Source: a virus
Lineage: Duplodnaviria > Caudoviricetes
Length of the DNA: 64,000 nucleotides
Reading direction: 5' to 3' (one strand)
Virus record (IMG/VR): IMGVR_UViG_3300024346_000016
Coordinates: 32,001 to 96,000 of that record
Within the stretch, counting starts at the first letter, position 1. Each line of letters starts with the position of its first letter. The notes beneath the pieces were generated by a model, which worked only from the letters and a program-made list of their open reading frames with translations, ran no database searches and was not told where the DNA came from. Positions 46,607-47,920 of the stretch are shown here, in pieces. Position numbers and translations under genes: made by a program.

Positions 46607-47920
46607 ATGGCTTTACCAAGCACCGGTACAATTGCAATGAGTCAAATTAATTCTGAGTTAGGCCGAAGCGCCTCTTCTACAATTAGTTTAGGCTCAGCTG
46701 AAGATGGCGGATATGCTGCAATTAACTCGTGTTCACCAAGTAGACCCAGCTCAAGTGATCCCGCGGCAATGTCTGAGTGGAGAGGTTATAATCACACCTT
46801 TGCTTGCTGTAATGCTCCAAGTATCTCAGTTACATCTTCTACGTCAAGTTCAGTTACAATTAGTATAAGCTATTCTAATTGTACTACTATGCATTTCGAG
46901 TCTAGTTCAAATGATGGATCAACTTGGAATACTAATTCAACTGGATGCGCTTCAAGTTATACTTATTCAGGGCTAGCCTCATCCACAACATATTATTTTA
47001 GAGTAAGAATAACTTGTACCTCAACTGGAGGATATTCTGGGTATTCTAGTCCGGTAATTCAAACAACTAGTGCAGGCTGCCCTGCGAATGGAACCTACTT
47101 AAGTCAATTTTGTTCAGGTTGTACTCTTTATTATCGATATGCAAACGGTAGCTGCGGAACCTATGATACAAGTCAGGGTTGTACGACTGCATGTGGCGGC
47201 TGTTGCTGTTCGCCCGGAGAGGGCACCTTCTTATATGCTCAGTGTAATGGCTGTTCCTATGATTTTTATTATTCAAATGGGTGTAATGGTTCATATAGTG
47301 TTGTGCAGGACCAATACTCAACTAATTGTGGCTGCGGCGAAGGCCCTACCTGTTATGAATTCTATGGTGATGGTAGCGGAGAGTGGGCGGGTCACCAGTG
47401 CGGCGAGCCTGCGGGCGTCAATGCCACAGGATATGCTGCGTTTTATGGAGAACCAATTGGCTGTTTTGATAATATGCAGTTTGGTGCATATCATGATGGC
47501 CAACCGTGCTTTGCGATGTGTCCTACTCCAGATATGCCAATCCTAATTGCCCCTAATACTTGGGTGACCGCAGGGGAGCTTAAGGTTGGCGATTATGTTT
47601 ATACTAAACACGAAACAACAGGTGACTGGGGATCATACCAGGTATCTCATATTAATCCAGGTGCTAATACAGTAAGTCGTACTGTAATTGGAGGCCAAGT
47701 GATCAAAGTTTCGCATAACCATAGATTCTTAACAGAAAGTATGGGATTCGTTGCCTTATCAGAACTATGGATTGGTGCTAAAGTACAAACAATAGATGGA
47801 GTTGCTGAAATTGAGTCAATTGAAGATCTTGGTACCTTACCAGTTATTCAAATAGAAATTGCAGATGCACATACATATGTTATTTGTGATGTAATATCTC
47901 ACAATGTAAAGCAACCCTAA
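46607..47920 (+). CDS. Putative fibre-tip adhesin: anchor, FN3, Cys-rich repeats, C-terminal Hint (intein-like) domain
   Basis: N-terminus [21 protein letters not shown]3 [15 protein letters not shown]; Hint blocks [10 protein letters not shown] / [10 protein letters not shown] / VSHNHRFL / [24 protein letters not shown]. Confidence 0.8.

Follow-up and report, generated by a model that had tools for sequence, protein, structure and literature searches.

The analysed stretch of 64,000 nucleotides (the window) corresponds to positions 32001-96000 of an IMG/VR virus record of 119,499 bases, the completeness of which is estimated at 46%. An open reading frame (ORF) of 437 amino acids (aa) was present on the plus strand at 46607..47920. 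It starts one base past the TAA stop codon of a gene for a 2079-aa fibre, with GAGG upstream of its start, and is closed by two TAA codons in tandem. An earlier note, made from the sequence, had described the product as a fibre-tip adhesin encoded directly after the long fibres and ending in a non-splicing Hint domain, and the placement of the gene was as described. The adhesin is best explained as a virion protein seated with the long tail fibres, in which a presumed N-terminal docking module precedes an FN3-like and a Cys-rich domain. The Hint at its C-terminus is, judging from its sequence features, probably a self-excising element resembling the type-A bacterial intein-like domains (BILs), which perhaps re-attaches the short tail behind it. 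The features of the locus are given in Table 1.

Table 1. Features of the adhesin gene and its neighbours (positions in the window)
Feature	Position	Strand	Remarks
Mini-Hint of the type-A BIL kind, residues 305-433 (129 aa)	47519..47905	+	Cys305, Ser369/His372, Ser431-His432-Asn433
Four-residue C-flank	47906..47920	+	Lys435 at +2; stop codon, next codon also TAA
N-terminal module, residues 1-66	46607..46804	+	shared module; presumed virion-docking adaptor (putative function)
FN3-like beta-sandwich, residues 67-155	46805..47071	+	sub-threshold sequence matches; model; FN3 arrays among Foldseek hits
Cys-rich region, residues 156-304	47072..47518	+	N-flank of the Hint; ends with Met304; last invariant Cys is Cys301
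Long fibre gene 1	35219..40360	+	1713 aa; C-terminal Peptidase_S74 self-cleaving chaperone (PF13884, E 2.5e-11, residues 1617-1670)
Long fibre gene 2	40366..46605	+	2079 aa; C-terminal Peptidase_S74 chaperone (PF13884, E 9.9e-12)
83-aa ORF directly downstream of the adhesin	47942..48193	+	no Pfam family; conserved irrespective of the Hint
Array of LamG-type (Laminin_G_3) proteins and one 115-aa ORF	48203..54959	+	PF13385 in 5 of 6 large ORFs

The Hint domain runs from Cys305 to Asn433 with blocks A and B and the terminal His-Asn intact, as had been claimed. Cys305 opens the motif CPTPDM, block B reads Ser369-His370-Asn371-His372, an Ala-His-Thr-Tyr motif occupies residues 421-424 and Ser431-His432-Asn433 closes the domain. 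The +1 position, which holds Cys, Ser or Thr in canonical inteins (classes 1-3), is taken by Val434, and 129 aa leave no room for an endonuclease; the absence of both had been noticed correctly. The Pfam family PT-HINT matched the whole protein with E 1e-3 and 19.8 bits and the domain alone with 23.7 bits, so that the proposed profile check did return a match at E 1e-3, but one under the cut-off of 27.7 bits. The best sequence match in the Protein Data Bank (PDB) found with phmmer was 2lwy, a BIL from C. thermocellum (E 5.1e-5). The same entry was found by Foldseek with the model of the whole protein (predicted local distance difference test, pLDDT, 70.6) at E 5.5e-9 and a template modelling (TM) score of 0.81. 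A model of the Hint alone, built on 46 sequences, reached pLDDT 94.8 and a predicted TM score (pTM) of 0.87. In VIA-align it gave Z scores of 20.8 to BIL2 (6y75), 20.7 to the DnaB mini-intein (6frh), 20.5 to 2lwy and 17.8 to Hedgehog (1at0); the first three were tied as top structural matches and covered residues 1-138 of the model. The lack of a Hint fold, which the earlier note had named as speaking against it, was not encountered, as a Hint fold was predicted with Z 20.5-20.8 to known Hints. The domain thus combines the fold, the N-terminal Cys and the block-B Ser-x-x-His of the Hint superfamily with the type-A BIL feature of His432-Asn433 without a +1 nucleophile, at a score below PT-HINT gathering. 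Its identity as a Hint is settled by the predicted fold, and the sequence evidence is weak yet consistent with it.

A word-index search with the whole protein yielded 114 relatives. About 40 of them are 434-443 aa long and carry the Hint, and about 40 others are 301-320 aa long and match within the first ~300 residues only. Two relatives of 460 and 461 aa have a different Hint at the same place, with very low identity there and Intein_splicing as the best Pfam family. The family rows numbered 85, comprising 40 with this Hint, 2 with the different Hint and 43 without a Hint, two of the latter (P0043 and P0045) being fragments. The alignment showed that the host protein up to the invariant Cys301 is common to all three kinds and that the Hint-less proteins end 2-12 residues past this conserved Cys. 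The insertion point lies three residues past the last conserved host Cys and four residues from the protein end. Thirteen IMG/VR loci were inspected for synteny. All five Hint-bearing and all six Hint-less orthologous loci had the order long fibre, adhesin and an ORF of 83-86 aa, and in all six of the latter the adhesin gene ends in a real stop codon between the same neighbours; in the two remaining, more distant loci a different small ORF follows the adhesin. In-frame insertion alongside Hint-less alleles of the host gene, a hallmark of canonical inteins, was thus observed. The Hint is an optional intein-like insertion and not a terminal add-on.

A tree was calculated on the first 301 residues of the 85 rows, after removal of P0002, a duplicate of the query, and of four rows in which the N-terminal part was shorter than 270 residues. 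Hint-bearing and Hint-less proteins fell mostly into separate groups. The Hint-less P0046 was nested in a 27-row Hint-bearing clade with a support of 99 in the Shimodaira-Hasegawa-like approximate likelihood ratio test (SH-aLRT), and the Hint-less P0047 stood beside P0017 (SH-aLRT 90). The second Hint lineage arose within the Hint-less group.

The tails behind the Hint begin with any residue followed by Lys, and their remainder ends, as judged by eye, like the C-termini of the Hint-less proteins. Also by eye, the tail of P0046 resembles the post-Hint tail of its clade-mates and is fused directly to the residues past the conserved Cys. Because the post-Hint residues resemble the tail of the Hint-less orthologues, the Hint appears to be an insertion with a kept C-flank, which looks ancestral and retained. 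The same pattern of presence and absence was seen in a second host family of 65 proteins (P0092-like, with a collagen motif), here with two Hint lineages. Its Hint-less members (548-605 aa) have a short Ser/Thr/Gly-rich terminal tail; in the others a Gly run is followed by this Hint (129 aa) or by a Hint of a third lineage (147 aa; 6 proteins, Lys at +1 in all) and then by a short tail. The motif ISQDFSNI stands directly past the linker in the Hint-less P0268 and P0315, and the same or a near-identical motif stands four residues past the Hint in P0138 and P0099. In P0153 the Hint lies within a fibre shaft, and the head of this fibre shares 68% identity over 177 residues with the Hint-less fibre P0258. 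Among 8 hits there was no exact-flank Hint-less allele for the fibre-internal Hints, only a relative sharing the C-terminal head.

An exhaustive search of representative proteins gave 1244 matches at E<=1e-3; among the 150 that were listed, many cover the Hint alone. From 257 proteins, 136 Hint matches in 126 proteins were collected, of which 131 had both ends placed, 129 of these a Cys start, and 125 distinct domains were obtained. These sequences are related and the counts do not represent independent events; their hosts, by contrast, cover a wide variety of proteins. Cys1, the block-B His and the His-Asn are invariant in 125 of 125, a set chosen for its Cys start and His-Asn end, which makes the block-B His the sole independent invariant of the three. 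Block B starts with Ser or Thr in 100% of the domains, the CPxP start is found in 94-97%, and the Ala-His-Thr-Tyr motif (421-424) and Ser431 are 98-100% conserved. At +1 we counted Lys 40, Arg 28, Val 17, Ile 10, Ala 9, Leu 9, Gly 5, Thr 2, Asn 2, Tyr 1, Ser 1 and Phe 1, which amounts to 3 of 125 for Ser or Thr and 0 of 125 for Cys. A Lys follows the Asn within four residues in every one of the 125, the first Lys standing at +2 in 80, at +1 in 40, at +3 in 3 and at +4 in 2, and this signature spans dozens of unrelated host proteins. Two further Hint lineages also have Lys after the Asn, in 6 of 6 and in 11 of 12. Three proteins of the second Hint lineage (P0103, P0105 and P0156) combine Ser at +1 with Lys at +2 behind the His-Asn, and in P0101 and P0102, which are closely related to them, Ala at +1 precedes the Lys at +2; all five are interrupted at one insertion point within a Cys-rich repeat. 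The +1 residue thus switches between canonical and non-canonical here and the Lys is constant. On the sequences collected, the signature of the phage lineage, a large group whose members occur in viral metagenome proteins, is a CPxP start, a Ser-His-Asn end and then Lys at +1 or +2.

The Pfam families Phage-tail_3, Phage_Tail_Tip, NlpC/P60, fn3 and SprB were recognised among the Hint hosts. The position of the Hint varies, with at most 25 residues past the Asn in 87 of 131 instances and more in 44 of 131; the latter include tandem Hints 4-7 residues apart and Hints within fibre shafts. Thus the proposed survey of homologues did find the Hint on diverse virion surface proteins, but the Hint is absent from many orthologues of this adhesin. 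At E<=1e-3, PT-HINT matched 18 of 46 relatives and Intein_splicing 11 of 46, and P0128 (45.3 bits) and P0123 (43.7 bits) exceed the PT-HINT cut-off. Four very basic, Arg/Lys-rich proteins (P0142, P0145, P0162 and P0222) carry two such Hints each and may be polyproteins cut by them. Among the 40 Hint-bearing orthologues of the adhesin, mean pairwise identity was 0.837 for the Hint, 0.743 for the N-terminal module, 0.755 for the FN3-like domain and 0.675 for the Cys-rich region. That the Hint is the most conserved region fits an active element or a recent spread between relatives, and not a decaying relic.

Comparison with characterised systems placed the phage Hint closest to the type-A BILs. 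BILs do without a +1 nucleophile, and the type-A BILs keep the His-Asn; according to two sources (PMC4031507, PMC7664689), cleavage is the usual outcome in the latter, but attack on the thioester by the amine that Asn cyclisation releases can also join their flanks. The model superimposes on the type-A BIL 2lwy (C. thermocellum; Pfam PT-HINT PF07591) with Z 20.5 and a root-mean-square deviation (rmsd) of 1.6 over 131 residues, and both have an N-terminal Cys, the block-B His and the C-terminal His-Asn with neither a +1 Cys/Ser/Thr nor an endonuclease. By analogy, the phage Hint would share the type-A chemistry, in which an N-S acyl shift and Asn cyclisation lead to cleavage or to ligation without a side-chain nucleophile (PMC4031507). 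The hosts differ: type-A BILs reside in bacterial secreted or toxin proteins, whereas here a phage virion protein is the host, with four residues after the Hint and no toxin domain. The CPxP start, the Ser-His-Asn end and the near-invariant Lys at +1/+2 are likewise the phage lineage's own. Mini-inteins (Ssp DnaB, gp41-1) resemble the phage Hint in fold (Z 19.3-20.7), in optional in-frame insertion and in blocks A, B and G. They possess the +1 nucleophile that defines classes 1-3, in contrast to Val434 here and to Ser/Thr in only 3 of 125 relatives, and the phage Hint is inserted in a C-terminal tail and not in a conserved active site.

BIL2 from the BUBL locus of Tetrahymena thermophila (6y75, 6tmm) is equally close in structure (Z 20.8, rmsd 1.8 over 138 residues). 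It joins its N-flank to a Lys side chain by an isopeptide bond (PMC8616854), which provides a precedent for the conserved post-Asn Lys as a nucleophile; by analogy, Lys435 could act in this way. BIL2 differs in its ubiquitin-like flanks, in place of which the adhesin has a Cys-rich domain and a four-residue tail, and the sequence identity is 17%. The Hog domain of Hedgehog shares the Hint fold (1at0, Z 17.8), the C-terminal position on a secreted or surface protein and the Cys1 thioester chemistry. Hedgehog uses the first step only and not the His-Asn (PMC7664689), and its Hog domain has a sterol-recognition region, whereas the phage Hint has no such extension because only four residues follow Asn433. 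The Hedgehog-like mechanism of the earlier note is therefore disfavoured, as the His-Asn that Hedgehog leaves unused is invariant and nothing resembling the sterol-recognition extension is present. In polymorphic toxins the pretoxin HINT lies just ahead of a C-terminal toxin domain (PMC3482391); behind the phage Hint there are four residues and two stop codons only. Finally, the Peptidase_S74 chaperone is alike in being a self-removing C-terminal module on phage fibres, both upstream fibres included, but its fold and chemistry are unrelated to Hint.

The self-excising reading is preferred because the adhesin Hint has every feature of a type-A BIL and, in addition, Lys at +2. From the predicted fold, the motifs, the optional nature of the Hint, its insertion position and its conservation, we infer cleavage and its product as follows. 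After translation, Cys305 would undergo an N-S acyl shift at Met304, Asn433 would cyclise and the Hint would remove itself, so that the mature protein would end at or near Met304. The four-residue tail could then be lost by hydrolysis, leaving a free Met304 end, or be re-attached, either via the freed alpha-amine, as in type-A BILs, or via the side chain of Lys435, as in Tetrahymena BIL2. The retained, ancestral-looking tails and the Hints inside fibres with a head as in Hint-less fibres favour re-attachment, and the Gly linkers ahead of many terminal Hints favour simple shedding. As the earlier note had proposed, the chemistry is likely to be autoprocessing at Met304/Cys305, given that none of the 125 relatives departs from the catalytic residues. 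The label non-splicing is not upheld: type-A BILs with His-Asn and no +1 nucleophile can splice, and the C-flank resembles the ancestral tail.

Several points weigh against this reading. This Hint scores under the Pfam cut-off for PT-HINT, the survey of its lineage draws on 150 of the 1244 representative matches, and cleavage is deduced solely from conservation. The tree came from a quick search and not from a careful one, the Hint-less status of P0046 and P0047, which presupposes that both are complete, was taken from protein sequences and not from DNA, and the likeness of the tails was judged by eye on peptides of 4-12 residues. Moreover, Gly stands at -1 in 44 of 131 instances, and in many other hosts the Hint follows a Gly-rich linker; such Hints look more like a fused terminal module than like an insertion at a conserved site.

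The constant Lys raised the further idea of a new splicing class, in which Lys at +1/+2 replaces Cys/Ser/Thr and its side-chain amine attacks the Cys1 thioester, which would produce isopeptide-joined flanks once the Asn has cyclised. We consider this unlikely. Were it true, a branched junction would be expected in the mature fibres and adhesins of numerous uncultured phages, and virion genes could harbour the element even though it lacks a canonical +1 residue.

Alternatively, the Hint might not cleave and might stay on the protein as a structural or decorative domain, which would be tolerable in loops and at ends because its N- and C-termini lie side by side. Hints do sit in fibre shafts ahead of a needed C-terminal head, as in P0153, where they must either splice or stay. 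This explanation appears quite improbable, since the constancy of Cys1, the block-B His and the His-Asn throughout the 125 domains (for Cys1 and His-Asn a result of how the set was chosen) and the stronger conservation of the Hint than of its host are hard to explain without catalysis. The Hint might instead be a domesticated C-terminal pro-domain that aids the folding or assembly of the Cys-rich adhesin and is then shed like Peptidase_S74, its tail being discarded. The C-terminal position in 87 of 131 instances (at most 25 residues past the Asn), the self-cleaving C-terminal chaperones on the neighbouring fibres and a second, unrelated protein of the same genome that also ends in this Hint would suit such a role. 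Close orthologues nevertheless manage without the Hint, and different Hint lineages replace one another at the same site. We know of no chaperone role for any Hint, although no search aimed at one was made; this likewise counts against a pro-domain, which we regard as very unlikely.

The earlier note had gone further than self-excision and proposed that an outside nucleophile (one of the downstream small or LamG proteins, a lipid, a glycan or the host surface) captures the Met304 thioester, so that the adhesin becomes covalently joined to a partner. The intact Cys1 and block-B His without a +1 nucleophile would permit such a transfer, the Hint hosts are mostly virion surface proteins (Phage-tail_3, Phage_Tail_Tip and fn3 among them), and Hedgehog and BIL2 pass Hint thioesters to other molecules. 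The proposal must nonetheless be called highly improbable, and no finding pointed to an outside partner. Thioester transfer needs no C-terminal cleavage, and yet this step appears to be kept because the His-Asn is conserved (125 of 125, in a set selected for it). The C-flank appears ancestral and retained, Hint-less orthologues occupy the same locus between the same neighbouring genes, and the downstream small ORF, of 83 aa in the window, is equally present in 6 of 6 Hint-less loci. Tandem Hints 4-7 residues apart and Hints in fibre shafts are unfit for a device that ligates a fibre tip, and a link to the LamG proteins did not emerge. Read-through or trans-splicing into the next ORF was rejected: in the window this ORF shares the reading frame of the adhesin but is separated from it by two TAA stops, and it lies in another frame in loci L004-L008.

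Self-excision of the adhesin Hint would add a phage setting to a familiar chemistry. In GenBank phages (50,697 records), tblastn with the whole protein found nothing at E<=1e-3, and the best match of the Hint alone had E 0.2. No relative was found in GTDB genomes with exact 8-residue patterns, which is a weak test. PHROGs and NCBIfam gave nothing informative for the adhesin, and the protein atlas returned only a viral hypothetical cluster (score 0.75). In BFVD, proteins of uncultured phages carry the automatic name 'Hint domain', so pipelines have met the domain; a description of the lineage was not found in the literature searched, the main texts of which yielded no report of a Hint or BIL domain terminating a phage fibre or adhesin protein. 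The chemistry and the fold are known, and the phage virion setting, the size of the lineage, its poor Pfam coverage, its absence from GenBank phages at tblastn sensitivity and the Lys signature are new.

Provided that the domain is active, intein-like chemistry overlooked by annotation pipelines would mature many of the structural proteins in uncultured large phages, and the sizes and C-termini of receptor-binding proteins would be mispredicted by about 14 kDa, most members lying under the Pfam cut-offs. The near-invariant Lys after the His-Asn in three Hint lineages offers a lead on splicing or cleavage without a side-chain hydroxyl or thiol. Endonuclease-free Hints of 125-136 aa that work at an extreme C-terminus would be useful as self-removing tags. 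The presence and absence of the Hint at one locus also constitutes a natural experiment on a selfish element versus an assembly role.

The host part of the adhesin begins with a module (residues 1-66) that was modelled with low confidence (pLDDT 40-65). In 53 of 80 IMG/VR loci the match covers at most the first 97 residues, and among the listed representative proteins many match just residues 1-64 to 1-98. The module is common to proteins with other C-terminal parts, for example the LamG protein P0112, and from these matches it looks like an exchangeable docking adaptor. For the FN3 domain claimed earlier, the model gave a confident beta-sandwich at residues 72-153 (block pLDDT 84-90 over 71-140 and 83 over 141-150), but the sequence matches stayed sub-threshold (Pfam fn3 E 0.023, 15.4 bits with a cut-off of 25; FN3con in the PDB, E 0.0075). 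The Cys-rich region was found as described: the adhesin has 26 Cys in total, and an alignment of 50 homologues has Cys in 15 of its invariant columns. It had no family match over residues 156-304. Two similar units of ~45 residues (near 163-187 and 207-231) were noticed in it, as were three consecutive Cys at 199-201. Cys301 lies four residues ahead of the catalytic Cys305; one might speculate about a redox trap.

A 1224-aa protein encoded at 13188-16862 has distant matches (24-33% identity) in large phages of Tenacibaculum, Flavobacterium, Chryseobacterium, Sphingomonas (PAU) and Prevotella (Lak), and the window therefore derives from a large phage of the broad Tenacibaculum/Flavobacterium/PAU/Lak group. 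The two giant fibre genes (1713 and 2079 aa, 35219-46605) are adjacent, have repeated motifs in common and each terminate in the S74 chaperone. The 83-aa ORF (47942-48193) adjoins the adhesin gene in 11 of 11 syntenic loci, Hint-bearing or Hint-less, and may encode an assembly factor or a partner of the adhesin. Behind it, the six large ORFs at 48203-54959 are paralogous, several beginning with the shared N-terminus MALHYNPRI. Five of the six match PF13385 (E 8e-13 to 7e-11); the 398-aa ORF gave a weak Sialidase-N match only. A LamG array follows the adhesin in the Hint-bearing loci L004, L005 and L008, and none was seen within 2.5 kb in the Hint-less loci, a difference that is confounded with phylogeny. 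No feature linking the Hint to the LamG genes was found, and the array is regarded as context.

The G+C content of the Hint (0.385), of the host part (0.439) and of the window (0.364) bears no foreign signature. A second, unrelated protein of the same genome, encoded by an open frame of ~810 aa outside the window (L002, G000:C1:104365-104751), ends in a Hint of this type with 45% identity, followed by a ten-residue tail with Lys at +1. In this protein a coiled-coil stretch is followed by a Gly run and then by the Hint.

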